Origin: a virus
Reading direction: 5' to 3' (one strand)
Length of the DNA: 64,000 bases
Virus record (IMG/VR): IMGVR_UViG_3300027971_000028
Coordinates: 69,337-133,336 of that record
The translations under genes and the position numbers were made by a program. The notes beneath the pieces are model-generated. The model saw only the letters and a program-made list of their open reading frames with translations, ran no database searches and was not told the origin of the DNA. Of the stretch, positions 4,733 through 51,536 are shown in pieces. Each line of letters starts with the position of its first letter. The first letter of the stretch is position 1.

Positions 4733-6076
4733 TTATTTTGCGTATCTTATAATTACTAAACCGCTACCGCCAGCACCTGATGCATAAATACTTTGATTCG
4801 CACCACCACCGCCACCGCCAGTATTAGCAATACCAGCAGTACCTAATGTTGTTGTTGCATATAATGCTCCTCTACCACCACCGCCTAAACCGCCGAGTGC
4901 AAATGAACCACCTTCAACCGCTCCGCCTCCGCCTCCTGCATAATATCCAGAATCTCCTGTACTAGTTGCAGATGCCCAAGTTGAGTATGATGCTCCAATT
5001 CCACCTGTTCCAACAGTTGATGGGCCTGCGCTTGTTCCAGCAGCACCTTTACCACCACCTCCACCACCAACAAAGAAACCACTTCCACGATAACCGCCGC
5101 CGCCTGCATTACCTTGACCGCCTGCAAGTGCGGCTCCGCCAGATGTGTAATCTCCGTTATTGGTTCCCATTGAACCACCACCGCCACCAGATTGACCATT
5201 ACTGCCAGTGCTATTCCACCAACTACCACCACCACCACCAAGAATTGTGTTTCCATTGAATGTTGTGTTACTTCCTGTTGCCCCATTACCACCAGTAGTT
5301 GCAGCGCCACCAGCACCAATTACAACAGGGTATCCAGTTGCGGTTAAAGATTGAGATGTATATTCAACTAAACCACCCGCTCCACCACCACCTGCATATT
5401 GGCTTCCACCTGAACCTCCACCTGCAATAGCAAGTACATCAGCAGTTATTGATTGCGTAGGAGTAAATGTGCCTGAGAATGGAAACGTATGATACCAGTA
5501 GGTACCGTCAGAGGATACGATTCCGCCAGTTGCTTTACTACCGCTAGTCACATTTGAGATGCCGTATAGGTAGAAGGTAGAGCCTGATACAAAGTTACCT
5601 GAGCCATATACAGCGCTTATTTTTATATCTGTAATTGGGTTAGAAGTACTTATTAAGCCAGCATTTAATACAGCATAAGCAGTTGAGGCATTGTTTTCAG
5701 ATACGCCATCAGTACTTACAGATTTGCTATTAGCAGAAGTATAATTAGGAATATAAATCTCAGTATTACCAAATGTACTTGCAGTAGAGGTAGGACCATT
5801 AGACATACCTAAGTACAAATAAGTAGTAGCACTTGATTGACTTCCAGTAGTAGATCCACTTCCATAAAGTTGTTTAGCAGAATAAATTGAACCAGTATTT
5901 ATTGTTTCATTGTAGCCAACCTGTAGAGATAGATCAGTATTAGGTTGTCCATCTCTATCATCTCTAGCAGACACTAATATTTTTAAGTCAGTATAAGTTT
6001 GTGGAATAGCACTAAAGGTAATGCTTGCTGCTGTAGAAGACAAAGTCTTGACATCAATTAATTCCATATTTGCCAT
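4733..6076 (-). CDS. Triad subunit C fused to a Gly-rich adhesin-like domain
   Basis: ITFSAIPQTYTDL...FYLYGI domain, then IAGGGSGG...ANTGGGGGG...GSGLVIIRY. Confidence 0.75.
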   Translation of the reverse strand: MANMELIDVKTLSSTAASITFSAIPQTYTDLKILVSARDDRDGQPNTDLSLQVGYNETINTGSIYSAKQLYGSGSTTGSQSSATTYLYLGMSNGPTSTASTFGNTEIYIPNYTSANSKSVSTDGVSENNASTAYAVLNAGLISTSNPITDIKISAVYGSGNFVSGSTFYLYGISNVTSGSKATGGIVSSDGTYWYHTFPFSGTFTPTQSITADVLAIAGGGSGGSQYAGGGGAGGLVEYTSQSLTATGYPVVIGAGGAATTGGNGATGSNTTFNGNTILGGGGGSWWNSTGSNGQSGGGGGSMGTNNGDYTSGGAALAGGQGNAGGGGYRGSGFFVGGGGGGKGAAGTSAGPSTVGTGGIGASYSTWASATSTGDSGYYAGGGGGAVEGGSFALGGLGGGGRGALYATTTLGTAGIANTGGGGGGANQSIYASGAGGSGLVIIRYAK

Positions 6077-6092
6077 TATCTATTCTCCTTTA

Positions 6093-7397
6093 TCACAATG
6101 CGTAACGAATAATTACGATGCCACTACCACCAGTAGCACCGCCATTTCTAGCGCTACCACCTCCACCGCCAGTATTTGCAGTTCCAGCAGTTCCAGTAGT
6201 ACCAATTACACCATCATTCAACCCACCTGCACCGCCACCACCTAAACCACCTGCACCAGCAGAAATTCCACTATTAACGCCAGCGTGACCACCACCACCA
6301 CCTGCAAAATAATAATTTCCACCTGATAATTGACCAGCACCAGTTGTTGCTCCACCAGAAATTGCTGTAGTAGAACCTATACCACCATTACCACCAATAT
6401 TAGATGATGCGTTACTGCCAACAGCGCCTTTACCACCACCACCACCACCTGCACCTTGTGATGAAGTTCCATCACCAGTACCACCATTATTTCCTTGTCC
6501 TGATGTTCCTAACCCAACACTACCGAAAGAACCTCCTTGACCGCCACCTGAACCAAAAGTTCCAGTTGCCGCAGCAGTATTGTAAGTACCTCCGCCTCCA
6601 CCACCTTTTACTAATGTTAATGAACCAAATTTAGAGTCACCACCAGTAGCACCAATAGGTGAACCAGCAGCACCACCACCACCAACTGTTACTGTGTAGT
6701 TAGTTGCAGTAAGTGATTGTCCAGTAAATGTAAGTAAACCACCTGCACCTCCGCCACCTGCATAATAATCTGAACTACCACCAGCACCACCAGCAACAAC
6801 AAGTACATCTGCTGTTATTGCTTCGTTAGGGATAAAAGCACCTGATGAAGTAAAAGCGTGATACATATAAGTACCATCACTTACAACAATATTTCCGCCT
6901 TGTGCTTTCTGAGCCTTATCTCCTACTTGGATTCCGTAGATTGAGAAGGTTGAGCCTGAAGCAAAGTTACCACTTAAAGGAAATAAAGTTAGTGAAGTTA
7001 TTGCTGAGGTATTACGCCAAAGATTAACCCAAGCACCTGTTCTATTATTTGCATTATTTCCACGAACTATTGCAGTTTTGTAAGTTGTTGAATTAGAATA
7101 ATTATTTATTTGATGAATATTGGTATTCAAAGATGCATAAGCCTCTCCACCAACCGCATAATTTTCATTGATATTACGGCCACTAAATGCACTACTACCG
7201 TTACCTAATAAATAAGTTTTTGAATAATTTGTACCAGTATCACCATTATATTGACAACAAATTACTTGAGTATCTATTGTACAAGTTACATTATTAACAA
7301 TAACTAAATCGGTATAGCCTTGTGGAATACTGGAGAAGGTAACTGATGCTGCTGCGCTACCTAGTGTCTGAGTTGCGATGGGTGTATAGGTACTCAT
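6093..7397 (-). CDS. Triad subunit B fused to a Gly-rich adhesin-like domain
   Basis: YTPIATQTL..VTFSSIPQGYTDL...FSIYGI, then Gly-rich domain ending GGSGIVIIRY. Confidence 0.75.
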   Translation of the reverse strand: MSTYTPIATQTLGSAAASVTFSSIPQGYTDLVIVNNVTCTIDTQVICCQYNGDTGTNYSKTYLLGNGSSAFSGRNINENYAVGGEAYASLNTNIHQINNYSNSTTYKTAIVRGNNANNRTGAWVNLWRNTSAITSLTLFPLSGNFASGSTFSIYGIQVGDKAQKAQGGNIVVSDGTYMYHAFTSSGAFIPNEAITADVLVVAGGAGGSSDYYAGGGGAGGLLTFTGQSLTATNYTVTVGGGGAAGSPIGATGGDSKFGSLTLVKGGGGGGTYNTAAATGTFGSGGGQGGSFGSVGLGTSGQGNNGGTGDGTSSQGAGGGGGGKGAVGSNASSNIGGNGGIGSTTAISGGATTGAGQLSGGNYYFAGGGGGHAGVNSGISAGAGGLGGGGAGGLNDGVIGTTGTAGTANTGGGGGSARNGGATGGSGIVIIRYAL

Positions 7398-7987
7398 TAG
7401 GCTCCCTTAATTCCGTATAGGGCAATTGAAGTATATTGTGCAAAATTGTAATTATCTGGATAAAATCTTATAGATGTAATTGCTGCTGTGTTTTGCCAAA
7501 GAGATGAATATAATGCAACTTGGCCGCCACCATTTCTATCTTCACCAAATAATGTTCTAACAGTTTTATATTTATTAGTATTTTTGTAATCAAGAATATC
7601 CATAATATTAACAGATACTACATTTGTGGCAGTTGTTCCCATAGCATTACCAGCATAAGCACCATATCCAACATTTGTATTTGTATACGCTGCTGATGTA
7701 GCACTAGCGCCATCACCTGAAAGAAAATGAAAATTATAATTTGTAGGACTTGATGGAGCATAGTCTCCGTTAAAATAAGCCCAAACCGTACTGCCATAAC
7801 TATTAACTCTTTGAGATTTAGCAATCATGCGAACTTGTAAATGAGTATAAGTTGAAGGGATAGAAGTAAAATCAACATATGCCTGACCAGCAGAACCTAC
7901 CTGCACCATACCAAGTGGGAACATAACTCCAGTATCAGCTCGCGCCTGCTGGTTGGATGAGGCAATAGTGCCAAATAAAATTGGCAT
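7397..7987 (-). CDS. Triad subunit A (virion beta-rich protein)
   Basis: MPILFGTIASS leader, FTSIPSTYTHLQVR, DILDY, ALYGIKG. Confidence 0.7.
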   Translation of the reverse strand: MPILFGTIASSNQQARADTGVMFPLGMVQVGSAGQAYVDFTSIPSTYTHLQVRMIAKSQRVNSYGSTVWAYFNGDYAPSSPTNYNFHFLSGDGASATSAAYTNTNVGYGAYAGNAMGTTATNVVSVNIMDILDYKNTNKYKTVRTLFGEDRNGGGQVALYSSLWQNTAAITSIRFYPDNYNFAQYTSIALYGIKGA

Positions 7988-7991
7988 TAGC

Positions 7992-8525
7992 TTAGGAAAT
8001 GTCGCCTACTACTAAAAACGTATTACTTGCTGTGCAGATTACTGCGGCTGAAGAGTATTGAACTCTTAACTTAGGCGCAGTTGCTGTAGCACCAGATGAG
8101 TTAATAGTTACTCCAGCCCCTTGAGCAAAACTAACCTGACCTGCTCCAGTTTGAGAAACGTTAACAACATCATTAGCACTAAATACTGATGGAGGAATTG
8201 TAAGAGTAATTGCCGCAGCATTACTTAAAGTCACAAGATCATTAAGATCTCCTGCTTGTAAGGTATAGGTTGTTCCAGTTACGTTATTAATAGCCAAAAT
8301 AGCGCTAGCAGCACCTGTTGGTCCAGTTACTGTTGAGCCTGTAGTACCCGTAGCCCCTGTTGAGCCCGTAGGACCTGTTGGCCCTGTAGAACCAGTTGCC
8401 CCAGTAGAGTAAGGAACAGTCGAACGAACGACCTCCCAAACGGTACCGTTCCACTTCCAAACACGGTTGCCAACGGTATGGGTATCGTTGACGGACGGGG
8501 AGTTTGGAAAATCTATTGCTGGCAT
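7992..8525 (-). CDS. Short collagen-like fibre protein
   Basis: [17 protein letters not shown]-module, short GXT run, TYTL..LRVQYSSA..GD C-module. Confidence 0.75.
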   Translation of the reverse strand: MPAIDFPNSPSVNDTHTVGNRVWKWNGTVWEVVRSTVPYSTGATGSTGPTGPTGSTGATGTTGSTVTGPTGAASAILAINNVTGTTYTLQAGDLNDLVTLSNAAAITLTIPPSVFSANDVVNVSQTGAGQVSFAQGAGVTINSSGATATAPKLRVQYSSAAVICTASNTFLVVGDIS

Positions 8526-8645: not shown

Positions 8646-8687
8646 TTACCACGGTGCTGCACTCGCTAGGTCTCTTGCTTTAGTCAT
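8646..8687 (-). pseudogene. 13-codon mini-ORF MTKARDLASAAPW (probable truncated fibre gene)
   Basis: TAATG-coupled to the upstream stop; 24 nt identical to 10923-10946. Confidence 0.45.
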
Positions 8688-9043
8688 TAGATTGCCACCT
8701 TAATCCATTCTTTGTTTATTTCAGACCAAGTCCATCTAAAACCTTCAACATCTGCTGGTCTAGCAACTGGTGCTTCCCAATCAAAAGTTGTATAATTTAA
8801 TTTCCAAGATGCATATGGTTGAGGTGTAATAAATACATCAAAGGTACCATCGTATGTATAATCAACTCCAGCCATACGTTTTCTTATATTACCATTGTAA
8901 GATGTTCTTCTAACCATATGTGGAGTTCCTTGTTCATAATATGCTTCAGGAGTTAAACCATCAATTAGTTCAGTTTCATCTTTACCAACTATAACCATTT
9001 CTACTTTATTATTTTCTCTATTTATATATGCGTAATGTGCCAT
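8687..9043 (-). CDS. Small Trp-rich adhesin partner, paralogue 2
   Basis: MAHYAYI, RTSYN, FITPQPYASW, WEAP; ATG at 9043 overlaps the upstream stop (ORF track start 9052). Confidence 0.75.
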   Translation of the reverse strand: MAHYAYINRENNKVEMVIVGKDETELIDGLTPEAYYEQGTPHMVRRTSYNGNIRKRMAGVDYTYDGTFDVFITPQPYASWKLNYTTFDWEAPVARPADVEGFRWTWSEINKEWIKVAI

Positions 9044-10518
9044 TATGCCCAACTTACTGTGTCTGAGACACCTGCTGCTGTAACTGTTGATATTTTATAA
9101 CCACCACTTGTGGCAGTTGTTTGTGTAACTCCACCGCTAAAAGTTGCGGTAAGAGATGATATGTATTTTAAAATAACCACACCAGAACCACCTGTACCAA
9201 AAAGAGTAGAACTTGTAGTTCCAGCACCATTTCCAGTATTTGCTGCGCCATTACCATAAGTTGGTGCTGCTCCTGCTGCATATGTTACTGAAGAGCCAGT
9301 AATAGAATTAGCAGTTCCAGGTCCTGGAATACATTCATTAGCACCAGCCAGTGAAGCTGCACCACCAGAACCTCCGCCTGCTCCACCATCATATGCGCCA
9401 TTACCACCAGTTGGGGTTTGAATTGAAGATGACCCAGCGTAACCTTCTACTGGTGAATAACCTCCAGCATTTCCTGAACCAGCGCCACCACCATAAGAAT
9501 AATCACCAGCACCACCACCAGAGCCACCTGATGCACCAGCAGCGCCTCTAGTATTACCGCCTCGTCCACCACCAGATGAAGAAGTAGTATTAAAAGTAGA
9601 GTTACCACCATTAGAACCAGGAGCACCACCTGCTCCAACTGTAACCGTGTAATTTGTTGAAGAAGAAACACTCTGACTAGTAAAGTATCTATAACCACCT
9701 GCGCCACCTGCGCCAATAAATTCTTTACCACCGCCTTCGGCATTGTACCCGCTACCACCACCACCAGCAACAATTAAATAATCAATTGAAATTGGTATTG
9801 TTACCGAACTAGTGGCAGAACTTTCAGGAGAATCTCCATTAGCGTTTGTTGTTTTTACTTTAAAAGTATAAGAAGAATTTTGTGAAAGTCCAGTAACTGT
9901 ATGACTTGTTGAACCTATTGTTGCTGCGTTTACTGGTGTTTGAGCAGTCGCACCAATATATGGGGTAATAGTAATAGCAGTAAGAGCACTACCACCATTT
10001 GAATTAAGTGTCCAAGTTACTACAACATCTGTACCTGATAAAGTAGCAGTACCAATAGTTGGAGCCTGTGGTCTAGTTGATGGAGTAACAGGACTAGCAT
10101 TGCCAGTATTTGTTGTTGTACCAAAATTGTTTTGTGCATTACCATATACAGTATAAGCAGTTCCTGGAGTTAATCCAGTTAAAGTAACTGTTGTGCTAGA
10201 ACTTGAAGCACTAAATCCACCAGCAGTTGTATAAGCATTATATTGAGTAGCCGTACTGCCACCAGTGCCAGGAGTAAATACAACCGATAGTTTACCAGCA
10301 GTAGATGTATAAGCATCACCAGAAGAAGTATCGGTTGGAGTTGCAATAGTTGGAACTGATGGAGGGGCAGAAGATGCTACCCAAGTAGTGCCATTATAAA
10401 TTTCAAGAAGTTCTAATGTACCATTGTAATAGGTATCACCAATTACAGGGCTACCAGGGCGGGCAGCGGTGTTACCAGAAGGTATGCCACCTTTAGAAGG
10501 AAATACTGCTGATGCCAT
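9043..10518 (-). CDS. Fibre protein: tail-fibre N-motif + two FN3-like domains + Gly-rich domain
   Basis: GNTAARP..GDTYYN..LEIYNGTTW; LTGLTPGTAYTV, LSQNSSYTFKV; IDYLIVAGGGG; GGSGVVILKY. Confidence 0.8.
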   Translation of the reverse strand: MASAVFPSKGGIPSGNTAARPGSPVIGDTYYNGTLELLEIYNGTTWVASSAPPSVPTIATPTDTSSGDAYTSTAGKLSVVFTPGTGGSTATQYNAYTTAGGFSASSSSTTVTLTGLTPGTAYTVYGNAQNNFGTTTNTGNASPVTPSTRPQAPTIGTATLSGTDVVVTWTLNSNGGSALTAITITPYIGATAQTPVNAATIGSTSHTVTGLSQNSSYTFKVKTTNANGDSPESSATSSVTIPISIDYLIVAGGGGSGYNAEGGGKEFIGAGGAGGYRYFTSQSVSSSTNYTVTVGAGGAPGSNGGNSTFNTTSSSGGGRGGNTRGAAGASGGSGGGAGDYSYGGGAGSGNAGGYSPVEGYAGSSSIQTPTGGNGAYDGGAGGGSGGAASLAGANECIPGPGTANSITGSSVTYAAGAAPTYGNGAANTGNGAGTTSSTLFGTGGSGVVILKYISSLTATFSGGVTQTTATSGGYKISTVTAAGVSDTVSWA

Positions 10519-10820
10519 TAGGAAATCTCCACTCCGCTAATTTGGAACTTAACTGTAACTGCTGATGCAAGACCGGCAATAATTTTAGTTGTAGCAAGGA
10601 CCTGCTTAAGGTCAAACAATGCTGTTGTGTTAGCAGCAATGGCTGCATCTTTAAATAGGTCAACACCATCTAGTGTGATGGTGAATGTAGCAGAAGTTGC
10701 TGCCGAGTTAGTTACTGCTATATTTGTAACTACCGTAGTTGTGCTTGCTGGAACTGTGTATAGGGTCGTGCTTGATGTTGCTGCTGCTCCTCGGAACAGA
10801 GCCTTTGATACTGTAGCCAT
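10518..10820 (-). CDS. Small virion structural protein (beta-rich)
   Basis: TTLYTVPASTTTVVTNIAVTN..ISGVEI; distant paralogue of 12118..12465. Confidence 0.7.
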   Translation of the reverse strand: MATVSKALFRGAAATSSTTLYTVPASTTTVVTNIAVTNSAATSATFTITLDGVDLFKDAAIAANTTALFDLKQVLATTKIIAGLASAVTVKFQISGVEIS

Positions 10821-10846: not shown

Positions 10847-10945
10847 TTATTTAGAATCCATGATGTCTTCAACCTGAAGGTTGTCAACATCTGTTGTTGT
10901 TGCGGCTGTACTAGCCAAGTTTGCTAGGTCTCTTGCTTTAGTCAT
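10847..10945 (-). CDS. 32-aa mini-ORF MTKARDLANLASTAATTTDVDNLQVEDIMDSK
   Basis: Overlaps the upstream stop; same 5' sequence as 8646..8687. Confidence 0.5.
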   Translation of the reverse strand: MTKARDLANLASTAATTTDVDNLQVEDIMDSK

Positions 10946-11285
10946 TTGTTATCTCCTTCCAAGATAGGTCATCTTCTGACCAGTAATATTCTTTATCCTC
11001 TACTGTAGGCATAGGAGTAGGTGCTTGCCATTGGCAAGTAGCCTCATCTAATGTCCAAGAGTTAAAAGGTTTAGGTGCTATAAAAGCATCTCGTGTAGCA
11101 TCATAGGTATAACCTTTATTTGCATAATTTTTTTTAATTGAACCATCTTGACTTGTTTCAATCCAAGTGCCACCAAGATTATTTAATAACCATTGATAAC
11201 CTTTATCACCGTTGGCATCATTATCATCTCCAACTAATACTCTTAAAACTTTATTGTTTTTATCAATTTCTGCCCAATAACTCAT
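10938..11285 (-). CDS. Small Trp-rich adhesin partner, paralogue 3
   Basis: MSYWAEID, KNYANKGYTYD, FIAPKPFNSW, WQAPTPMP. Confidence 0.75.
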   Translation of the reverse strand: MSYWAEIDKNNKVLRVLVGDDNDANGDKGYQWLLNNLGGTWIETSQDGSIKKNYANKGYTYDATRDAFIAPKPFNSWTLDEATCQWQAPTPMPTVEDKEYYWSEDDLSWKEITND

Positions 11286-12475: not shown

Positions 12476-13837
12476 TTATCCGAATATTTGTGCGGCTAGT
12501 ATTGGTTGGTCATTGTCTGCTGATGGTACTGTCACTGCTGCCCACTCAAGGCCACCTGTGGCCGCTGAGTTAGCTTTTAGATAGTAATCATTAGTTCCTA
12601 CTGCAAGTCTACCAATTGTGTCAGCGGCAGTACCTACAAGTAAGTCACCTTTTGCATCAATTGTAGTTGAAAGAACTGCGTTTGCTACGTTATAGGCACC
12701 AATTGCAAGTATCTCAACAATGTCATTAACAGCAAGAGCGGAAAGGCTAGCAATTGAGGTGCCATTACTTGCGGTGTAATCTGTTCCTCTTACAAGTAAA
12801 ACACCGTTAAGAAATACTTGCTCATAGCCTGCCGTGTATGCAAGTGTTACTGAGTTTGCATCTGCTCCAGAAACTCCAGTTTCACCACCTGCGGCTACAA
12901 AACGATATCTAGTTAAAGTTGCAGTACCAGTAGGTCCTGTAGGTCCAGTACCTCCAGTGCTTCCTGTAACACCAGTTGGCCCTGTAGGACCTGTATTTCC
13001 AGTAGGTCCATCATTAGCACTCGCTGCCTCTACCCAATAACCATCATAATAAATATAAACATTTCCTGAAGATGCGTCATACCATGCGTCCCCCGCCTCA
13101 GGTGCGGCAGGTGGAGTTGTTGCAACTGTTGAGAATTGACCATCATCTCCAGTTATACCTGTTGCACCCGTATTTCCAGTTGCACCAGTTAAACCAGTTG
13201 CTCCCGTTAATCCTGTTGCACCAGTATTACCTTGCGCTCCTGTATTACCAGTTACACCAGTATTTCCAACTGCTCCAGTTGCACCCGTATTACCAGTCGG
13301 ACCATCATTTGCTGAGGCTGCCTCTACCCAATAGCCATCATAATAAACATATAAATTTCCACTTGCAGAGTCATACCATGCATCCCCAACTTCGGGGGAT
13401 GCTGGTGGAGTTGTTGCGGCTACGCTAAATTGACCGTCATCTCCAGTTACACCAGTCTGTCCAGTTACACCTGTTGGACCTGTAGGTCCTGTACTACCTT
13501 TACCTGAAAGTAAATCCCACCTTGCAGAGGAACCAGGAATGTGTGAAGCAATATCACCACTTGCAATAAATGTGTTACAAAAATATGTACTGCCGTTGTA
13601 TTGAACTACATCACGGACATTATATTCAACAAAATCAAAGGCTGCTCGCCAATTTATACCTGTTATACCAGTAGGCCCAGTACTTCCAGTTACACCCGTA
13701 GGTCCAGTCTGACCAGTAGCACCCGTTGGGGCTAAATCACGGACTACTTTCCATGCGGTACCGTTCCAACGCCAAGTAGTATTACCAGAGGTAAATGTAC
13801 TATTTACGCTAGGACTATTAGGAAAATCTATAGGCAT
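12476..13837 (-). CDS. Collagen-like fibre with interspersed globular modules
   Basis: IDFPNSPS N-module, GXT repeats, [14 protein letters not shown] (CBM-like), two [15 protein letters not shown] modules, [18 protein letters not shown]. Confidence 0.8.
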
Positions 13838-13955: not shown

Positions 13956-16103
<2,148 letters not shown>

Positions 16104-17116: not shown

Positions 17117-20581
<3,465 letters not shown>

Positions 20582-28642: not shown

Positions 28643-29629
28643 GTGCCAATTCTTGGTTCTCAATCTTCAGGTGCAAAAGCAGCCCCAGCCACTCCAACTA
28701 TAGGAACACCAACTTTAACCAACTCAACAACAGTTTCAATTCCTTTCACCGCTCCTGATAGCAAACTTCCAATTACCTCTTACACAACTACCTCCTCTCC
28801 TTCTATTGCCTTAACTACGTCAGGTACTTCTACTCCACTAACTGTTACTGGTTCATTTGTTGCAGGAACTACTTATACATTTACAATTACTGCAACAAAC
28901 GCAAATGGAACTTCGTCTTCTTCAAGTACGTCTACTTCAGTTACTCCAGAAAAACCAGCGCCTAGTACAGTTTCAACAATGGGAGTAGGCGGTGGCGGTT
29001 GTGGTCAGTATACAAGTGCAGGCGGAGGCGGCGGAGGTGGTGGTGAAGTTTTAGTTAATAATAGTTTCTCTATAACTACAAATACTAACTATTCAATTAG
29101 TATTGGTGCAGGTGGAACAAATGCTCCAGTTGGTAATGGTCCACCTTTTGCATATAGCGGCGGCGCTAGTACAAGACTTGGTAGCAATGCCCGCGGCGGT
29201 ATTTATGCAACTTGGGCGTATCCAAATTATGGTCAAGGTGGAGCATCTGGTAATGGTAATGACGGCAATGGCGGTGGTGGTGGCGGTGCTGGTGCTGCTT
29301 CAACTAGTGCAACAGGTGGTGCAGGAATTACTTATAACTCGGTAGAATATGGCAAGGGCGGTAGTACTGGCGGTGGTTCAGGTGCTGGTGCAAGGACTGG
29401 AGTTAACACTGGTGGTGGTGGTGGCGGAAGACAAGGTAACGACCAATTTGGAATTCCTTCACCATATACCCCATGTTGGGGAAGAGATGGAGTGGTTATT
29501 GTGAGATATAGTGACACTTATAAGGATCCAACAATTGGTGGCGGACTAGTTTATACAAAAACTACTGATGGTTCTACTTTAGTTTTTACATTTACAGCTG
29601 GCTCCGATAATATAAGTTGGGCAGCATAA
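28643..29629 (+). CDS. FN3 + Gly-rich adhesin-like protein
   Basis: MPILGSQSS leader (GTG start), GTTYTFTITATNANG FN3, Gly-rich C-half. Confidence 0.75.
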   Translation: MPILGSQSSGAKAAPATPTIGTPTLTNSTTVSIPFTAPDSKLPITSYTTTSSPSIALTTSGTSTPLTVTGSFVAGTTYTFTITATNANGTSSSSSTSTSVTPEKPAPSTVSTMGVGGGGCGQYTSAGGGGGGGGEVLVNNSFSITTNTNYSISIGAGGTNAPVGNGPPFAYSGGASTRLGSNARGGIYATWAYPNYGQGGASGNGNDGNGGGGGGAGAASTSATGGAGITYNSVEYGKGGSTGGGSGAGARTGVNTGGGGGGRQGNDQFGIPSPYTPCWGRDGVVIVRYSDTYKDPTIGGGLVYTKTTDGSTLVFTFTAGSDNISWAA

Positions 29630-29961
29630 TGGCACGCTACGCTATCCTAGATGAAAACAATTTTGTTATAAATATAATTGTAGGACGAGAGCCAGGAGAG
29701 TTGGTAAACGGAGTTTCAGACTGGGAAACTTATTACGGTGTTCATTTAAATAAAATGTGTAAAGTAACTTCTTACCCCAACTGGGCAGTTATTGGTGGGA
29801 TATACGATACAGTGAACAATGTTTTTATCTCTCCACAACCTTTTCCTTCTTGGATCCGATCAGGTTCTTTCTGGGAAGCTCCAACTCCAAGACCAGAAGA
29901 TGACAAATTTTACACTTGGGATGAAGACTCCCTTAGTTGGATAGAGCAAACTCAACCTTAA
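29629..29961 (+). CDS. Small Trp-rich adhesin partner, paralogue 4
   Basis: MARYAILDE, FISPQPFPSW, WEAPTPRP, WDE..SW; TAATG overlap at 29627-29631. Confidence 0.75.
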   Translation: MARYAILDENNFVINIIVGREPGELVNGVSDWETYYGVHLNKMCKVTSYPNWAVIGGIYDTVNNVFISPQPFPSWIRSGSFWEAPTPRPEDDKFYTWDEDSLSWIEQTQP

Positions 29962-31964: not shown

Positions 31965-33383
31965 TTAGTTAGCCTTAAAAACCCTAGATCCACCACCTCT
32001 ACCACCCATACCTCCTCTAAAACTTGGAAGTCTTCTGGCGGCGGGAGATTTTGCGGTTAATTTTCCACCAATAAATCCTTTAGGTGGTTTAATAAGTAGA
32101 GCCGTTAAAGCATGAACTAGAGCATCTACTCTATCTGGAGATTTTCCTTCACCAGGAATCCATGCAGTCATTTGATCTTCTAACTCTGCAATGTATCCAA
32201 TATGGTGAACTCTTTCTTGTTCATATGCAAGAACTACTGGCTCTGCTCTAAGTTGTTTTCCATGTTTAGAGTGAACTTCAAATACTTTTACATTTGGGTC
32301 AATAGCATTAATAGCATTAGTAACTAAGGCTCCACCCTGATTTACCTCTGCTACAACTGGTGCTCCCCAACGCCTAGCCATCTCTACAACTTTATTTGCC
32401 CAAACTTCAGGAGAACCATGAATAGTTGCATCCTCTAAAACCCAAGCGTGACGTTTATATAAATCTCTATCTGCAGTTGATGCAACTACAACAATTCCAC
32501 AAGCATCTCGTGGGTTCTCCGCTACGGATGGGTCAACTCCAATAACTCTTAAAGGAGTGTGTGGTGGTAAAACATTTTGTCTAGCCTTACTTATCATCTC
32601 TATTGTCCATAGTGCACCTTCAATAGAATCAAGCATCTCTCCATAAAGTTCCTGCTTTGCTAATCTTGTTCCTTCATACACTCCCAAAATTGTGTCTAAA
32701 TATGCAGAGCTTAAGTTTCCAGAGTTGTCCATAGTAGATCCTCTAGTAACAACAACTTTACTACCTTTCTTTTCTTCTTCTAATAAAGAATAAAGAAGTG
32801 ATACACGCTTTGGAGTTGTTGTAATCATAATTTGTGGATTAGCACCTAAACGAGTTCCAACACGTAAGTTATCAAAAGCAGTCATACCAGCAGCATCTGG
32901 AGTCTGGCGCCATGCAGCTACTTCATCCCCCCAAGCGTGGGTGAATTGCGGACCACGAAGTGAGTCTGGCTCATCTGCTGTAAAACAGGTAGCCGTATTT
33001 CCATTAGGCCAAGTTAAACGACGTTTAGATGGTTCATATAATGGACGCTCACTTGGTGGAGTCACATTCATAATTCCTGATTCACCTTCAACAAGAACGT
33101 CACGTACATCTGCTGCAGTACGAGCAACAAGTGCAAAACGTCTTTGACCAGTGTTTGTATACTTTGCTGTTTCTCTTACCCACTCAGCCGCTGCTCTTGT
33201 TTTTCCAGCACCGCGACCAGCAAGATAAATCCAAATATTCCAATCACCCTCTGGTGCTTGTTGTTCTGGACGTGCCCATGAATGCCAATCCCAGAGAAGC
33301 ATCTCTGGATCTAAGTCCGCCAATACTGCAGCTTTTTCTTCTGGAGATAAAAGAGATATCTTCTCCATAAAACTTTGTCCCAT
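31965..33383 (-). CDS. terL: Terminase large subunit
   Basis: Walker A LAGRGAGKT, GPQFTHAWGDE, ITTTPK, QELYGE, nuclease IGVDP and SPDRVDALV. Confidence 0.93.
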   Translation of the reverse strand: MGQSFMEKISLLSPEEKAAVLADLDPEMLLWDWHSWARPEQQAPEGDWNIWIYLAGRGAGKTRAAAEWVRETAKYTNTGQRRFALVARTAADVRDVLVEGESGIMNVTPPSERPLYEPSKRRLTWPNGNTATCFTADEPDSLRGPQFTHAWGDEVAAWRQTPDAAGMTAFDNLRVGTRLGANPQIMITTTPKRVSLLYSLLEEEKKGSKVVVTRGSTMDNSGNLSSAYLDTILGVYEGTRLAKQELYGEMLDSIEGALWTIEMISKARQNVLPPHTPLRVIGVDPSVAENPRDACGIVVVASTADRDLYKRHAWVLEDATIHGSPEVWANKVVEMARRWGAPVVAEVNQGGALVTNAINAIDPNVKVFEVHSKHGKQLRAEPVVLAYEQERVHHIGYIAELEDQMTAWIPGEGKSPDRVDALVHALTALLIKPPKGFIGGKLTAKSPAARRLPSFRGGMGGRGGGSRVFKAN

Positions 33384-46806: not shown

Positions 46807-47709
46807 TTAAATAGTAGTATATCCGTAATAAATGATCTGCGATGCGCCACTGGTATTAGCAATTGTAAAGTCAAACCTATTACTACTTGTACCCGAGTAT
46901 GTAGCGTCTGTGCTAATAGTACCTGCTACTCCTCTAATCTGATTAGGTATGGCAGTTAATGAAATAGGACTTCCGCCGCCAGTGTAGTTCCAAGCATATT
47001 GATATCCTATTGCTGCTACATTAGCATTTGACACACTGGCTGTAGCGTTCCAAACTATAATACCGTTAGGTATATTTCCCTTGACCCACATGGTGTATGT
47101 GCCACCACTTGGAACTTCAAAATTGTAGGTGTTAGTGCCTGTGGCAATAGTCCATGAGCCTGTAGTAGCAGCTGAACCTGTAGCACCAGTAGGTCCAGTA
47201 TTTCCAGTAACACTTGCACCTGTTACACCTGTATTACCAGTTGCTCCCGTTGCACCAGTCTGACCAGTTGCACCAGTGTTACCAGTGCCAGTTGGACCAG
47301 TTGCACCTGTACTTCCTATATTACCAGTTGCTCCTGTTGCACCTGTCTGCCCTGTTTCACCTAACGCACTGCTCGACGACTCCAGCCAAAATCCGTCGTA
47401 GTACACAAACATAGTTGCAGAGTTAGGATCAAACCAAACGTCACCTGTTTCAGCACCTGTTGGAGCTGTAGTTTCAGCGGTAGAGAATACTCCGTTGTCT
47501 CCTGTTGTGCCCGTTGCTCCTGTGTTGCCAGTTGGACCGTTTGTTCCAGTTACGCCTGTTGCACCGTTTGTTCCAGTTGCACCAGTTGCGCCTGTGCTAC
47601 CGACCGCACCTGTTGGTCCAAGCCATACCGTGCCATTCCAACGCCAAGTAATTGATCCGGATGAGAACGTTTGATTTAACGATGGGGAATCCGGGAAGTT
47701 AATTGGCAT
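46807..47709 (-). CDS. Short collagen-like fibre (chimeric)
   Basis: [16 protein letters not shown]-module, GXT runs, GDVWFDP..YYDGFW module, distinct C-terminal head. Confidence 0.8.
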
Positions 47710-47802: not shown

Positions 47803-48300
47803 TTAGGAGTTTTTGATTCCGTATAGGTGAAAGGTTGAACTGGTTTCAAAATTTCCACTAAGTTTTACAGAAGTTATTGCTGAAGTATTAGACCATAAAC
47901 CAGCGGCTAACATAGTATACGCTTCATTATTTGCGTTATTTTCTGAAACAGAATCAATTGAAATTGATTTATGTTGTGAACCAGTATAGTTTGTAATATA
48001 AATTTGAACATTTCCAAATGTGTTTGCAGTAGCAGATGATTTTGGCAAACCTACTAAAACTACATTGCCACTGTAAGACCCATTAGTTACTGAACCATTT
48101 TCTCCCCAAACCCATCTGCCCTGTAAATTAGCGCTGCTTCCATTTATTTCTGAAATTTCTGAGTCAGGTGAACCAGTTGTGCTACGGGCAGACATTAAAA
48201 TACATAAATGAGTATAGGTTGCAGGTATTGAAGTAAATGTAACACTCGCGGCTGAACTACCTAAAGTATTAGCCTGTATCAAAGTAAATGTATTTGCCAT
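47803..48300 (-). CDS. Triad 2 subunit C
   Basis: VTFTSIPATYTHL, FGNVQIYI.NY, SVSENNA, FHLYGIKNS. Confidence 0.72.
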   Translation of the reverse strand: MANTFTLIQANTLGSSAASVTFTSIPATYTHLCILMSARSTTGSPDSEISEINGSSANLQGRWVWGENGSVTNGSYSGNVVLVGLPKSSATANTFGNVQIYITNYTGSQHKSISIDSVSENNANNEAYTMLAAGLWSNTSAITSVKLSGNFETSSTFHLYGIKNS

Positions 48301-48800
48301 TATGCAGTCAAAATTCCGTAGAGTGAAAAGGTTGAGCCTGAATCAAAATTTGAAGCACTTGTAGGAGTTAATACTATAGAAGTAATTGCCGCTGTATTTC
48401 TCCAAACACCTGCATAAGCAATTGTTATTGTTGAGGCAGCACTACCTCTTGATAAAACATTTTTGTAAGTTGTAGTGTTTGAATAATTTTGAAAGTGAGT
48501 TATGCCAGCAGCATACTCTGTTGCGTGATGTCGTGCAATAAGAACTCCACTTGAATTATTGGTACTACCTGAAGACGCACTTGACCCAGTGCCATAAACA
48601 TATACTGTTGAATAATTACTACCTGTGTCAGAATTAAATTGACACGTTATATCATTGGTGTCTGCAGAGATATCACTTGATGCTGATGTTATTAAAATTA
48701 AATCAGTATAACTTCCGCTAATACTAGAGAAGGTAATGCTTGAGGCAGGACTACTCAAAGTATTTGTCGCTATTGGTTCGTATGTTCCGCCTGCAGCCAT
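48300..48800 (-). CDS. Triad 2 subunit B
   Basis: YEPIATNTL, ITFSSI, NYSNTTTYK, WRNTAAITS, FSLYGI. Confidence 0.72.
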   Translation of the reverse strand: MAAGGTYEPIATNTLSSPASSITFSSISGSYTDLILITSASSDISADTNDITCQFNSDTGSNYSTVYVYGTGSSASSGSTNNSSGVLIARHHATEYAAGITHFQNYSNTTTYKNVLSRGSAASTITIAYAGVWRNTAAITSIVLTPTSASNFDSGSTFSLYGILTA

Positions 48801-48802
48801 TG

Positions 48803-49405
48803 TTATACCCCCTTAATTCCGTAGAGAGCAAGTTGTGAGTACTGTTTGAAAGGTGATGAAGTACCAAGTGCTTCTATAGTTATAGAGGTTATAGCACTGG
48901 TGCTTGTCCATAGGCCAGACTTAAATGACACGCTTGAAGCGTTGTAACCATTAATTGTATTTGCATTTGTACTTATTCCTTCTATAGTTCTAAGAACTTT
49001 ATTTTTATTTGTAGAGCTATAATTCAAAATTTCTGTAATGAATGTACCAAAAAATGGTGCAGCAGCAACGCCTGGTATGGCGCTTAAATAAAGGAAATCT
49101 CCTAACCCCTCTGTAGCAGCATATGCACGAGGGGGAGAATCGTTAATACTGGATCCTAAAATATGGTCTCTATAGTTTGAGCCTGTATCACTGTTAAATC
49201 TAAGAGTTCCATATCCACTTGGTTGTGGACCTGGTCTACTACCTTGCAATATCCCTCTTATCTGCAGATGCATAAAAGTTTGTGGTATTGAACTAAAGGT
49301 AATAGTTGATTGACCACCCGCGCCTACTGTTGTTGTTGCAATAGACTCGAAGGAGCCAAAGGATTTGCCTGAAAACTGCGAAGCAATCGTACCTAGAATA
49401 TTCAC
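48803..49405 (-). CDS. Triad 2 subunit A
   Basis: MNILGTIASQ leader, FSSIPQTFMHLQIRG, ALYGIKG. Confidence 0.72.
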   Translation of the reverse strand: MNILGTIASQFSGKSFGSFESIATTTVGAGGQSTITFSSIPQTFMHLQIRGILQGSRPGPQPSGYGTLRFNSDTGSNYRDHILGSSINDSPPRAYAATEGLGDFLYLSAIPGVAAAPFFGTFITEILNYSSTNKNKVLRTIEGISTNANTINGYNASSVSFKSGLWTSTSAITSITIEALGTSSPFKQYSQLALYGIKGV

Positions 49406-49427: not shown

Positions 49428-49519
49428 TAATTGTATCGCAGAAAGTAAAAGTTTATTTTTTCGCGCTCCCGTTCCGTAAGAGGAAGAAGAGACGGAAAAA
49501 AGGGGAGGGAGGGGGGGGA
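49428..49519 (-). repeat. Cassette module copy H
   Basis: Core ACGGAACGGGAGCGCGAAAAAAT at 49455-49477; TACAAT; G4/G3/G8 runs on the + strand. Confidence 0.8.
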
Positions 49520-49855
49520 TTAAGGTCCGAATGTCCAAGCGTTAACTGACCCTTTTTTTGCTTTTGCATAAAGAAAATCTTTTTCTGCTTGTATGCCTAC
49601 AATTCTAAATGTCATTTGATTTATGTTTGAAAGATTAATAATTCCTTTACCGTTGCGAACTAAAGAAAATTTAATGTTTTCATATGCATTATCTTCTGAT
49701 GTAGCAAATGTTCCAAACGTTATGTCTCCTGGAGCAAGTGGGTGAGACCCTAACATTAAGTATTGTCTTAATTCTTTTTCATCTTCTTTTTTCATCTCTA
49801 AACCCCTATCACTTCCTACGCTAATCATTTCGGTCATGGGCAGAAGTATACACAT
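49520..49855 (-). CDS. Hypothetical protein flanked by modules H and I
   Basis: 111-aa ORF; true start uncertain. Confidence 0.55.
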   Translation of the reverse strand: MCILLPMTEMISVGSDRGLEMKKEDEKELRQYLMLGSHPLAPGDITFGTFATSEDNAYENIKFSLVRNGKGIINLSNINQMTFRIVGIQAEKDFLYAKAKKGSVNAWTFGP

Positions 49856-49939
49856 ATCTTGTAAAAATGCGTTTTTTCGCGCTCTGTGTCCGTGATAAGA
49901 ATCGGCGGAAAGGATTAGAGGGGGGAGGTAGGGATAAGG
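49845..49939 (-). repeat. Cassette module copy I
   Basis: Core ACGGACACAGAGCGCGAAAAAAC at 49871-49893. Confidence 0.8.
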
Positions 49940-50467
49940 TTAGGAGTTTTTAATTCCGTAAAGTTCAAAGGTTGAATTTGCTACAAAATTGGTAGCTCCT
50001 GATGAAGCACAAAAAATGCTAACTGAAGTGATTGCTTCACTTCCACCATTAAATAAAACTCCACTCCAACTTAGAAAAGCATCAAATCCATTATTTTCTA
50101 CTACTGATTCCCCAAGAAAAGTGTGTGGTGTAGCGCTAGTATAAGATGGAATATAAATTTCGGAATTGCTAAAAGTGTTTGAAGTTGCAGGGTTTGAAGG
50201 TAGATCTCCAATAATTCTATAAGCAGCAGGGTTTTTGTTTGAGCCTGTGCCTGTAAGATAAGAGTACATACCTATCCAAGAATAACCAGTATTACTTACT
50301 TGTGAATTAAAACCAATAATAAGATTTTCTCTAAAAGCATCCACAGAACTACTTCTAGCACTTATCAAGATTTTCAGGTCAGTATAGGTTTGTGGAATGC
50401 TTGAAAAAGTAACAACATTTGCTGGGGTCGATATTGTCTGAGAGGCTATTTTAGTAAATGTTGCCAT
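49940..50467 (-). CDS. Triad 3 subunit C
   Basis: VTFSSIPQTYTDLKILISAR, FSNSEIYIPSY, FELYGIKNS. Confidence 0.72.
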   Translation of the reverse strand: MATFTKIASQTISTPANVVTFSSIPQTYTDLKILISARSSSVDAFRENLIIGFNSQVSNTGYSWIGMYSYLTGTGSNKNPAAYRIIGDLPSNPATSNTFSNSEIYIPSYTSATPHTFLGESVVENNGFDAFLSWSGVLFNGGSEAITSVSIFCASSGATNFVANSTFELYGIKNS

Positions 50468-50967
50468 TATGCCGCCTTAATTCCGTATAGTGTAAAACTT
50501 GAACCAGCCAAATAACTAGATGAATATGAAAAAAGTTCAATAGAGTTTATGACAGCCGTACTTCTCCAAGTGCTACAAAAACTAGTTATCTCTGCTAATC
50601 CTGTATTTGCGTATTTTGATAGAGATGTTTTCTTTGCTACTGTACTTGAGTAACTAAATATTTGAATTATGCCTGATGCAGTAATAGTATTTGGTAATTG
50701 TCCCGCTGCGTTTAATCCATAACCATGAGTCATATTAGTGTAGTTTCCACTAGCAGGAGCAGCAGTTCCTACTGCGTAAAAAACTGTTGAACTATAGTTT
50801 GATTCGCTATCGCCGTTATATCTTAAACCAACATTTGCTGGCCCTGTTTGACCAAGATTACAAACAATTACTAGATCAGTGTAAGTAGATGGGATAGAAG
50901 AAAAAGTAAGAGTTGTTGCTGGACTTGCCAAAGTATTAGTTGCTATTGGATCATATGTTACTGCCAT
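50467..50967 (-). CDS. Triad 3 subunit B
   Basis: YDPIATNTL, FSSIPSTYTDL, WRSTAVINS, FTLYGIKAA. Confidence 0.72.
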   Translation of the reverse strand: MAVTYDPIATNTLASPATTLTFSSIPSTYTDLVIVCNLGQTGPANVGLRYNGDSESNYSSTVFYAVGTAAPASGNYTNMTHGYGLNAAGQLPNTITASGIIQIFSYSSTVAKKTSLSKYANTGLAEITSFCSTWRSTAVINSIELFSYSSSYLAGSSFTLYGIKAA

Positions 50968-50972
50968 TTTAT

Positions 50973-51536
50973 TTACCCCTTAATTCCATAGAGAGCTACA
51001 GTTGTTCCAGCATCCCATTGGGCTGCCCCACCGAATTTTATGTTTAATGATGAAATTGCAGATTGATCTACCCATAAGCCTGACGTAAGCAAGATAGCAG
51101 AGTCGTTACTATTTCCATCTTTTCCTGAATAATTTCTAATTACTTTATTTTTAGTTGTACTTGTATAGTCTAAAATATCGCATACTTGAACTCCAAAAAG
51201 ATTTGCTGCTGATAGTGCAGCGGTGTCTGCTCCCCAATACATACCAAAAGATAGAGCACCAGAATCATAAGTTCCAATAGTAGTTGCGTTTCCATAAATA
51301 ACATGGGCTCTATAAGTACTTGATGATTGACCATTGAAATCTATATAACCACCAGCGCCAGTTGCAGAGTAAGTACTTCTGAACAAACCTCTTAATTGTA
51401 AATGCTTATATGTTTGTGGAATACTAGAAAACGATAGTATTGATTGTGAAGAAGTGAGAGTAATTGTGGCAATAGATTCGAAGGAGCCAAAAGGCTTACT
51501 CGAGAATTGCGAAGCAATCGTACCTAGAATATTCAC
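50973..51536 (-). CDS. Triad 3 subunit A
   Basis: MNILGTIASQ leader, FSSIPQTYKHLQLRG, DILDY, ALYGIKG. Confidence 0.72.
   Translation of the reverse strand: MNILGTIASQFSSKPFGSFESIATITLTSSQSILSFSSIPQTYKHLQLRGLFRSTYSATGAGGYIDFNGQSSSTYRAHVIYGNATTIGTYDSGALSFGMYWGADTAALSAANLFGVQVCDILDYTSTTKNKVIRNYSGKDGNSNDSAILLTSGLWVDQSAISSLNIKFGGAAQWDAGTTVALYGIKG

Follow-up and report, generated by a model that had tools for sequence, protein, structure and literature searches.

A conserved triad of paralogous genes probably encodes a 1:1:1 pseudo-threefold fibre knob in an uncultured freshwater siphovirus

Introduction

With few exceptions, a phage fibre or fibre head is a homotrimer encoded by one gene, and heads of the TNF/C1q-like and phage fibre types are likewise usually homotrimers. 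A locus in an uncultured freshwater siphovirus raises the question of what is assembled when three different paralogous genes, always in the same order, stand among the fibre genes. The locus lies in a window of 64,000 nucleotides (positions 69,337 to 133,336 of IMG/VR record IMGVR_UViG_3300027971_000028), the whole stretch of DNA that was analyzed. The initial annotation described three copies of an A-B-C triad and proposed that each forms an obligate 1:1:1 heterotrimer serving as an exchangeable platform for adhesin domains. We here compare the nine proteins with each other, with relatives in other genomes, and with known fibre heads, and we put at roughly 60% the probability that the triad forms a 1:1:1, pseudo-threefold, head-to-tail knob that is likely a host-adhesion module on accessory fibres.

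Results

Open reading frame calls in the window yielded nine paralogous domains of 165 to 200 amino acids, all on the minus strand and arranged in three ordered A-B-C triads (Table 1), thereby reproducing every coordinate and the gene order given initially. The nine domains can be aligned over some 170 columns; F, I, L, N, Y, I, and Y-G-I are invariant and correspond to the FSSIP.TY and L/IYGI motifs that had been called common to all nine. Even the most distant pair, A1 and C3, is matched by BLASTP with an E value of 9e-08, and hhalign relates the A-class and C-class profiles with a probability of 100% (E = 2.4e-39). A hidden Markov model built from the nine domains retrieved exactly the same nine from the six-frame open reading frames of the window, the next best match having an E value of 0.19. 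An alignment search of the whole 133,336-bp genome likewise gave these nine and no further A, B, or C domain copies, with the remaining matches falling only in the Gly-rich part described below. In a maximum-likelihood tree, the A, B, and C domains each occupy one side of a branch (support of 98/97, 86/84, and 96/93, respectively), and every clade contains one member from each triad.

Table 1. Triad genes and neighboring features, in coordinates of the window
Feature	Position	Strand	Length (aa)	Description
A1	7397..7987	-	196	A class, triad 1; N-terminal leader of ~20 aa (MPILFGTIAS...)
B1	6093..7397	-	434	B-class domain ~6921-7397, then Gly_rich_2 ~6102-6848; phrog_2295
C1	4733..6076	-	447	C-class domain ~5549-6076, then Gly_rich_2 ~4742-5473
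A2	48803..49405	-	200	A class, triad 2
B2	48300..48800	-	166	B class, triad 2
C2	47803..48300	-	165	C class, triad 2; start overlaps B2 stop by 1 nt
A3	50973..51536	-	187	A class, triad 3
B3	50467..50967	-	166	B class, triad 3
C3	49940..50467	-	175	C class, triad 3; start overlaps B3 stop by 1 nt
Short collagen-like fibre	7992..8525	-		Directly upstream of A1; N-terminal adaptor motif and ~100-aa C-terminal domain; candidate carrier of the knob
Collagen-like fibre	46807..47709	-	300	Directly downstream of C2; same N-terminal adaptor motif
78-aa protein	4072..4308	-	78	Homologues stand immediately downstream of C more often than any other gene in other phages (25 of 78 loci)
122-aa protein	4311..4679	-	122	Directly downstream of C1; candidate helper of the Gly-rich domain

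The sequence motifs that had been listed as specific to each class proved nearly invariant in 48 additional triads, with HLQ.R and LYGIKG marking A, TY.PIAT.T and WR.T marking B, and S.R, YIPNY, and E.N marking C. Proteins of the A class also begin with a conserved leader (I.G..AS), some 20 residues long. All three classes begin at, or at most 20 residues before, the first strand, and none contains a G-X-Y run, the collagen-like proteins being encoded by separate genes. We found no Pfam or PHROG model for the domain family; at E ≤ 1, the only Pfam match to the A, B, and C domains was a weak one of C2 to PF06469 (E = 0.26), which is far below the cut-off.

The continuation past YGI into a Gly-rich region, described initially for B and C of triad 1 only, was recovered as a match to Pfam PF21722 (Gly_rich_2; cut-off of 24.3 bits) in residues 184 to 432 of B1 (48.9 bits) and 202 to 445 of C1 (67.7 bits). 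Both proteins also match phrog_2295, and the other seven stop 2 to 4 residues past YGI. The extension is optional elsewhere as well, being present in 14 of 193 triads, where it extends B, C, or both but in no case A. The family of the 122-aa protein follows Gly-rich genes here and extended C genes in other phages, which makes this protein a candidate helper of the Gly-rich domain. The idea of exchangeable parts agrees with a mosaic relative (L107) in which A is 89% identical to its counterpart here and B and C are only 46 to 48% identical.

Order and completeness are conserved well beyond this genome. Among 253 related viral and metagenome-assembled genome (MAG) loci, which hold 193 unique triads, A>B>C on one strand was found in every case that the extent of the contig made testable. 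The domain string was ABC in 214 loci, ABCABC in 9, and ABCABCABC in 1, with nearly all incomplete or odd strings at the end of a contig or locus. Neighboring triad genes have median gaps between -1 and 2 nt. Clustered at 50% identity, the family in its wider sense comprises 37,346 representatives, with at least 540 viral contigs for each class, and our searches found neither a solved relative nor a cultured phage carrying the module. Bacterial genomes are nearly devoid of the family, with 14 loci, all of them MAG contigs, among 185,579 species.

Natural fusions join adjacent members only. The 150 top-scoring family representatives include 6 A-B, 7 B-C, and 71 C-linker-A fusions, the linker in the last group being an Fn3 domain, and no confident A-C or B-A fusion. 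More distant relatives include about 40 single chains of three domains with linkers of about 4 residues. One of these, P0136, has a predicted fold with a pLDDT of 93 and a pTM of 0.91, indicating that its three domains pack together and are not beads on a string.

The AF2 model of C2 is a 12-strand beta-sandwich (pLDDT of 89). The A/B/C domain is predicted to be a jelly-roll sandwich with a weak likeness to the heads of TNF and C1q and to the fibre head of an archaeal virus. Fold matches reached Z scores of 5 to 7.7, all below 8 and in a range that unrelated sandwiches also attain. The best viral match, the head of the tail fibre gp42 of Haloferax tailed virus 1 (HFTV1; PDB 9h5b), covered the whole model (Z of 7.1, rmsd of 3.1, 120 residues), and the PGP3 C-terminal domain gave a Z of 7.5. 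Matches to C1q, Cbln1, collagen VIII NC1, TWEAK, and APRIL lie at 5.0 to 6.3, and GH32 sandwiches and galectins score as high as all of these; the gC1q-type scores are 6.3 for Caprin-2 C1q, 6.2 for collagen VIII NC1, 6.0 for C1QL1, 5.8 for 5hzf, and 5.3 for 6z6v. Legume lectins and carbohydrate-binding modules are also similar in fold.

A model of A2, B2, and C2 together gave an ipSAE of 0.93, compared with 0.02 for the best of three controls; the score of 0.93 cannot separate a heterotrimer from homotrimers because structure predictors often accept a close paralogue instead of the true partner. Of 80 solved complexes, 58 attain the ipSAE mark, as do 2 of 110 mismatched pairs; with our own alignments used, these counts are a rough guide here. 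Three runs shared at least 94% of contacts, with a partner pLDDT of at least 92. In the model, C contacts A and B through opposite faces, and the B-to-C and C-to-A contact pairs, scored on the partner chain, fall on identical canonical columns, a pattern that points to a cyclic, head-to-tail interface used repeatedly. The predicted arrangement is thus a ring of three subunits head to tail around one axis, as in TNF/C1q-like heads, with the scored contacts being B-C and C-A. The interface columns carry class-specific invariant motifs. When the top 150 covariation pairs between chains are taken for each block, 41 run in the predicted donor-acceptor direction and 24 in the reverse, with about 20 expected by chance, which weakly supports the predicted interface.

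The triads are flanked by collagen-like and Gly-rich fibre genes, as in a fibre or tail gene cluster, and the whole fibre region is more than 17 kb away from the Dit/Tal tail operon. One N-terminal adaptor motif is common to four fibres here. The short fibre preceding A1 has a C-terminal domain that recurs at the end of the gene before A in some 30 out of 68 other loci; no fibre gene with this shared domain precedes triad 2 or 3. Gene neighborhood, the weak fold likeness, and the fusions together suggest that the knob would be part of the virion, at a fibre tip.

Discussion

In the assembly that we favor, three jelly-roll paralogues of about 165 to 200 amino acids would be synthesized in equimolar quantity, their genes being tightly coupled, and would associate 1:1:1, head to tail, into a single pseudo-threefold knob. 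The face of C formed by the S.R strand and the TANTF loop, and its equivalents in A and B, may pack on the following subunit's YI.NY...K.S sheet, B on C and C on A, with A on B by symmetry. Such a knob would be asymmetric, since its three positions differ. A is the likely anchor, given its conserved leader of about 20 residues and its consistent lack of a C-terminal extension, and docking may occur through that leader. B and C are the positions at which a Gly_rich_2 domain, monomeric and about 270 amino acids long, can be added, and in other phages the Fn3 linker joins C to A of the triad that follows. The genes of the knob come right after fibre genes that share one C-terminal domain, and the knob most likely sits at or on such fibres, where it may act in host adhesion with exchangeable B and C parts and Gly-rich add-ons. 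Of the initially proposed obligate heterotrimer, co-assembly is favored by the fusions, the single chains, the tight gene coupling, and the score of the ABC model, whereas that model does not distinguish an obligate heterotrimer from homotrimers.

The same genes could instead encode three separate homotrimers, acting as successive fibre segments or knobs or as alternative tips, comparable to T4 gp34-gp37. This would explain why A, B, and C stay together in order, and it would equally predict conserved class-specific interface faces. The nearest folds (the HFTV1 gp42 head, C1q/TNF-like heads, and PGP3) are mostly homotrimeric, complex modelling could not tell the paralogues apart, and covariation is weak in both the 13 best predicted contact pairs and the top 150 pairs. 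Stacked homotrimeric knobs, however, would not give rise to compact chains of exactly three domains with such short linkers, and the near-zero gene gaps fit equimolar synthesis. A Gly-rich domain on each chain would be tripled in a homotrimer, and the extensions are confined to B and C. Moreover, it takes the mixed ring for the invariant Arg of A (column 35) to face the invariant Asp of B (column 31); in an AAA ring, the residue opposite would be His. We therefore consider separate homotrimers unlikely, if still deserving of attention.

A mixed ABC knob could also be placed elsewhere in the virion, as a capsid or neck decoration or as a docking platform for the fibres with the adaptor motif, four of which need docking sites. 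In keeping with this, P0126, a fused relative, has an N-terminal part that matches a PHROG with the annotation head decoration, the single-chain relative in L266 is encoded between the head-tail genes and the major tail gene, and the fibre cassettes lie apart from the tail operon in this genome. Single-chain relatives occur inside siphovirus tail modules. The one in L268 comes after the genes for the tape measure and minor tail proteins, where receptor-binding functions are usually encoded, and relatives in BFVD carry lambda Stf repeats, Fn3, and collagen as fusion partners. These observations, with the fibre domain that so often ends the gene before A, make a site away from the fibre tip improbable. 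Least plausible is a non-structural role, for example a secreted or intracellular lectin-like complex in host takeover or superinfection exclusion. The fold does resemble galectins, legume lectins, and carbohydrate-binding modules, yet the triad is always found among same-strand fibre genes, its relatives are fused to Fn3, collagen, and Stf repeats and lie in tail operons, and the family is nearly absent from bacteria; we regard such a role as very improbable.

If the triad does form a fixed knob of three different subunits, it would solve the problem of hanging single-copy adhesins on a threefold fibre, and its parts could be swapped without rebuilding the anchor. Naming the family and its three classes would allow at least three genes to be annotated in very many freshwater phage genomes and would flag likely host-range determinants in phages of abundant lake bacteria.

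Several known systems resemble parts of this arrangement. In T2/S16-type phages, gp38 is a monomeric glycine-rich adhesin at the end of the trimeric gp37 fibre, with small helpers encoded adjacently. It is bound non-covalently, whereas the Gly-rich part here is PF21722 and is fused to knob subunits, and the triad proteins have no Pfam GP38 match. The HFTV1 gp42 head forms the C-terminal end of a siphovirus fibre that is trimeric, but it is a homotrimer from one gene on its own stalk, and its Z score does not exceed what unrelated sandwiches give.

The closest precedents of the triad knob are C1q and the tripartite tail of virophage DSLV2. Heterotrimeric fibres were rightly called uncommon at the outset, but the DSLV2 proteins QIG59353-59355 provide a biochemical precedent, a 1:1:1 heterotrimeric receptor-binding fibre established by co-purification, native PAGE, and EM (PMC12724248). 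They are encoded by three consecutive same-strand paralogous genes for proteins of about 200 amino acids, an arrangement conserved across a viral lineage (PMC12724248), and the triads share this layout. All three DSLV2 proteins carry PF07484, the phage tail collar domain (PMC12724248), which is absent from the Pfam matches of the nine triad proteins at E ≤ 1; unlike the DSLV2 tail proteins, A, B, and C are predicted to form a globular sandwich without a Pfam match above the cut-off. The DSLV2 type occurs in 45 virophages, compared with tens of thousands of sequence clusters in the triad family.

The C1q head (C1qA, C1qB, and C1qC; single-chain PDB 5hzf) likewise consists of three paralogous jelly-roll chains from adjacent genes in a 1:1:1 pseudo-threefold arrangement with collagen-like stalks, the triad version being predicted. 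Each C1q chain bears its own stalk, whereas the collagen-like fibres here are separate genes, and the domain sizes differ (12 strands and about 165 amino acids in the triad, compared with about 135 amino acids in gC1q). There is no sequence relation and the Z scores of only 5 to 6 are within the range of chance, such that the likeness is one of analogy and not of membership. A bolder reading, possible but rather doubtful in our estimation, would make the triads a huge family of obligate C1q-like knobs, in which a homotrimeric fibre head was triplicated and its threefold symmetry broken. A would anchor to the C-terminal domain of a collagen-like fibre, and B and C would carry from zero to two monomeric Gly-rich adhesins or Fn3-chained knobs. 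Such a design would be convergent with the collagen stalk plus ABC head of C1q and would serve freshwater phages generally as a modular host-range system.

Three ordered triads of paralogous genes

The window encodes nine paralogues that fall into three classes, designated A, B and C, in a fixed and closely coupled order, with distinct patterns of fusion and extension among their relatives. The initial annotation had described three ordered A-B-C triads, and the ORF list, a domain HMM and a phylogenetic tree bore this out in every detail (see table; genes are named by class and triad number). Aligned, the nine proteins cover about 170 columns, nine of them invariant; an F..I motif and the Y-G-I at the end are among the latter. 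A1 and C3, the pair furthest apart, matched by BLASTP with an E value of 9e-08, and the class A and class C profiles aligned by hhalign with an E value of 2.4e-39. An HMM of the nine, run on the window, found only these nine, with the next match at E = 0.19. Searching the whole source record (an IMG/VR virus of 133,336 bp, rated complete, of which the window is bases 69337-133336) returned the same nine domain copies and, beyond those, only matches to the Gly-rich parts. In a maximum-likelihood tree, each of A, B and C was split off from the rest by a single branch (98/97, 86/84 and 96/93, respectively), and each class clade held one member per triad. A Gly-rich continuation had been described for B and C of triad 1 alone, and this was confirmed: only B1 (48.9 bits) and C1 (67.7 bits) continue into the Gly_rich_2 domain PF21722 (cutoff, 24.3), and their Gly-rich parts further match phrog_2295. 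One-base overlaps occur at B2/C2, B3/C3 and A1/B1.

Genes of the three triads and genes flanking triad 1
Gene	Positions	Strand	Remark
A1	7397-7987	minus	ORF list; initial coordinates reproduced
B1	6093-7397	minus	ORF list; initial coordinates reproduced
C1	4733-6076	minus	ORF list; initial coordinates reproduced
A2	48803-49405	minus	ORF list; initial coordinates reproduced
B2	48300-48800	minus	ORF list; initial coordinates reproduced
C2	47803-48300	minus	ORF list; initial coordinates reproduced
A3	50973-51536	minus	ORF list; initial coordinates reproduced
B3	50467-50967	minus	ORF list; initial coordinates reproduced
C3	49940-50467	minus	ORF list; initial coordinates reproduced
Collagen-like fiber gene, 177 aa	7992-8525	minus	Flanks triad 1
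Small gene, 122 aa	4311-4679	minus	Flanks triad 1
Small gene, 78 aa	4072-4308	minus	Flanks triad 1

Conservation of order, and fusions between classes

Class HMMs were used to assign the domains of 253 related loci, comprising MAG loci and 240 viral contigs from separate scans started with C, A and B; as the best 80 per scan, these represent relatives at 40 to 55% identity. The domain string was ABC in 214 loci, ABCABC in 9 and ABCABCABC in 1. The strings BC, AB, A and C all stood at a contig or locus end, and in the few odd strings the third domain was truncated or weak, or there was a weak fourth. Because ABC strings dominate and incomplete ones lie at contig or locus ends, the expectation that order and completeness would be kept in other genomes holds among these relatives. 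The loci yielded 193 unique triads. Measured from each gene's stop codon to where the following domain begins, the median gap was -1 to 2 nt, and such short gaps and one-base overlaps would fit coupled, equimolar translation.

Among the 150 best representatives of metagenomic clusters, two-domain proteins joined A to B (6 proteins), B to C (7 proteins) or C through a linker to A (71 proteins), with no confident case of an A-C or B-A fusion. The linker is an Fn3 domain, and the C-Fn3-A proteins (P0127-P0260) are about 430 aa long. In one related locus (L049:5989-7299), a C-Fn3-A fusion connects one triad to the next (A B [C-Fn3-A] B C), a layout that suggests chains of A-B-C knobs. Four independent B-C fusions (P0001, P0002, P0005 and P0012) have the common junction ...YGI(K/L)AAQTM..., in which a single base change could separate the Gln codon from a stop codon; these proteins may be recent stop-loss fusions or products of read-through.

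Some 40 proteins that are more distantly related, each about 500 aa long, have precisely three domains joined by linkers of about 4 residues, and longer relatives have 3, 6 or 11 domains per chain. Giant proteins, including P0121 (2087 aa), P0122 (2147 aa), P0125 and P0164, each contain 6 to 11 domain-matching stretches, and many proteins of 1100 to 1700 aa have exactly three domains in mid-chain.

Extensions and possible exchange of parts

Of the 193 triads, 179 were plain, 10 had an extended C, 3 had both B and C extended, 1 had only B extended, and none had an extended A. Gly-rich sequence made up 16 of the 17 extensions, and lengths were 264 to 287 aa except for one of 206 aa. Class A alone has a conserved leader at its N terminus (I.G..AS, then SYESIAT), and in the C-Fn3-A fusions the Fn3 linker replaces this leader. 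One related locus (L107, 1625-2873, compared with window 47804-49399) encodes an A protein 89% identical to A2, whereas its B and C are 46 to 48% identical to B2 and C2. The DNA is 87% identical across A2 and the first ~100 nt of B2, and the break comes about 100 nt into B, which puts a recombination break inside the triad and suggests B and C to be swappable on a constant A. The extension pattern, the leader, its replacement by Fn3 and this locus all fit A as a constant anchor and B and C as variable, load-bearing positions.

Gene neighborhood

The window is rich in genes for collagen-like fibers and Gly_rich_2 (phrog_2295) proteins. Triads 3 and 2 form a tandem pair, with a 300-aa collagen-like fiber gene (46807-47709) after it. 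A C-terminal domain of about 100 aa is common to the fibers at 7992-8525, 13956-16094 and 17117-20578, and in about 30 of 68 other loci the gene preceding A terminates in the same domain; the commonest alternative in that position, in about 7 of the 68, is a homologue of 10518-10820. The proteins of 7992-8525, 12476-13837, 13956-16094 and 46807-47709 share a motif at their N termini, about 35 aa long (MP.I.FP.SP...W.WNG..W). From these shared ends, the fibers look to be assembled from interchangeable end modules.

In other phages, the gene directly downstream of C is most often (25 of 78 loci) a homologue of the 78-aa protein, which has no Pfam match; for many of these homologues the alignment covers just the first ~26 residues. 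The 122-aa protein is one of four paralogues of 114 to 122 aa with 34 to 52% identity (4311-4679, 8687-9052 and 10938-11285 on the minus strand; 29617-29961 on the plus strand). Three of the four lie directly downstream of a Gly_rich_2 gene, and where C has a Gly-rich extension in other phages, the next gene belongs to this family (L047, L063 and L089-L091). Proteins of this family may be helpers or partners dedicated to the Gly-rich domain. Beside triad 3, in divergent orientation, is a Mom-like DNA modification gene (51607-52239, plus strand; phrog_1384, E = 7e-51).

Spread of the family in databases

The 170-aa domain of the nine proteins had no match in Pfam or PHROG, and a PDB sequence search found no relative of the domain profile or of the Gly-rich part. 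Megablast returned no match in 50,697 deposited phage records, and tblastn with A2 and C2 gave two matches only, both to unannotated uncultured phages; therefore, no cultured phage among these records has the module. In metagenomes the domain is very common, with at least 7,983 matching proteins in a word-indexed search and 37,346 representatives of 50%-identity clusters (E <= 0.001) in an exhaustive one. The genomes of 185,579 prokaryotic species gave only 14 loci, all on lake MAG contigs and most of them short, which rules out a prophage origin and makes this a family of free uncultured phages. Some of the module-bearing MAG contigs were binned to Aquiluna and other actinobacteria, although such bins are unreliable. 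The ESM Atlas returned viral "hypothetical protein" clusters only, and BFVD contained 153 viral models (E < 0.001), including fusions to lambda Stf repeats, Fn3, collagen repeats and a Gly-rich domain. In the open-access papers searched, PF21722 was mentioned nowhere, articles on C1q-like proteins, collagen and phage fibers held nothing concerning this family, and those on "heterotrimeric" phage parts mostly dealt with baseplate wedges, which are unrelated; we found no paper there on the present family.

Predicted fold and complex

AF2 predicted C2 to be a 12-strand all-beta sandwich (pLDDT 89, pTM 0.86). Its matches among PDB structures were C-terminal sandwiches of GH32 (Z = 7.0 to 7.7), the head of the HFTV1 tail fiber (9h5b; Z = 7.1), galectins (Z of about 6) and C1q, collagen VIII NC1 and Cbln1 (Z = 5.0 to 5.3); Foldseek against the PDB gave only low-TM lectin and toxin-binding sandwiches (TM <= 0.44). 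The single chain of P0136, modeled from a 25-row alignment, reached a pLDDT of 93 and a pTM of 0.91, values that point to a fixed, compact three-domain arrangement rather than beads on a string. The three-domain model was closest to the TNF-like C-terminal domain of PGP3 (Z = 7.5). Heads of the C1q/TNF family matched at Z = 5.2 to 6.3, including the single-chain C1q 5hzf, where residues of just one domain aligned and the match thus speaks neither for nor against a C1q-like arrangement. With every match below Z = 8, the predicted fold is that of a jelly-roll sandwich, possibly TNF/C1q-like, with membership unproven.

The A2+B2+C2 complex, modeled with a 51-row alignment per chain in the same locus order, gave an ipSAE of 0.93, compared with 0.02 for the best of three controls. 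Of 80 solved complexes, 58 attained the ipSAE mark, as did 2 of 110 mismatched pairs; since the alignments were author-made, these counts are rough. At least 94% of the contacts agreed between runs, with a partner pLDDT of at least 92. In the model, C contacts A and B through opposite faces. When both are placed on one set of HMM columns, the contacts of B to C and of C to A have the pairs (101,107), (101,117) and (35,31) in common, and one interface geometry would thus be repeated cyclically, as in a threefold ring. Class-specific invariant motifs lie on the modeled contact faces, with "S.R" and "TANTF" of C against "D.LDY...K" of A.

Proposed structure and alternatives

We propose, with a probability of about 0.6, that the triads encode a 1:1:1 A-B-C knob of phage fibers with host-binding Gly-rich additions, a reading that joins the observed classes, order and fusions to a predicted ring and an inferred place in the virion. 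Fusions between classes, the three-domain single chains and the complex model speak for A, B and C acting as one unit, and the three are predicted to close head to tail into the ring. The knob would be seated, through the A leader, on the C-terminal domain of the collagen-like fibers, and together with the Gly-rich additions it would bind the host surface. Three different subunits would break the threefold symmetry, such that single-copy domains or a further knob could be placed at defined positions.

The initial annotation had proposed an obligate heterotrimer. Ring packing of A, B and C is feasible by the model, which, given that predictors accept close paralogues, leaves room for rings of other composition. 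Three cooperating homotrimers (AAA, BBB and CCC) are unlikely in our judgment. Covariation among 196 paired triads at 13 far-apart predicted contact pairs did not separate the mixed ring, the reverse ring and the homotrimers. Among the top 150 interchain covarying pairs per block, 41 were in the predicted donor-acceptor direction between the two contact faces and 24 in the reverse, with about 20 expected; the pairs are not independent, and the enrichment lends weak support to the predicted direction. In the mixed ring, the invariant Arg at column 35 of A would face the invariant Asp at column 31 of B, and in AAA it would face a His; this charge complementarity, at one pair, is suggestive but not decisive.

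A second alternative keeps the knob and puts it elsewhere in the virion, or gives it the role of a docking platform; we hold this to be distinctly improbable. A nonstructural role for the triad would be very surprising.

Single-chain relatives, whose context was taken from viral contigs, sit within siphovirus tail modules, one after the tape measure and minor tail genes (L268) and another immediately before the major tail gene (L266). In the present genome, Dit-like and minor tail genes lie ~12.5 to 20 kb ahead of the window (G000:C1:49500-56750, equal to L346:101-7356, plus strand). The tail operon ends ~12.5 kb before the window and is followed by genes for DNA polymerase, helicase and exonuclease. 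The fiber cassettes, and even the large terminase gene (compare window 31965-33383), stand apart from that operon among replication genes, and this phage is probably a siphovirus with fiber cassettes detached from the tail operon. Structural genes are unusually scattered in this genome.

Comparison with known systems

The nearest viral precedent for the fiber knob proposed here is the tripartite tail of the virophage DSLV2, in which three consecutive paralogues form a biochemically demonstrated 1:1:1 heterotrimer (PMC12724248). The DSLV2 proteins have a PF07484 collar and a gp37-tip-like fold (PMC12724248); PF07484 is absent from the nine proteins, which therefore do not belong to the DSLV2 tail family. 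In function, the C1q head offers the nearest analogy: it is likewise encoded by three adjacent paralogous jelly-roll genes, assembled 1:1:1 and linked to a collagen stalk. Unlike those of C1q, the A, B and C chains are devoid of a collagen region, and their fold matches that of C1q weakly. HFTV1 gp42, in turn, is a homotrimeric fiber of base, beta-helix, stalk and head. A fiber head is of a known kind, and what would be new is a phage fiber head built as a fixed heterotrimer, in a very large unnamed family.
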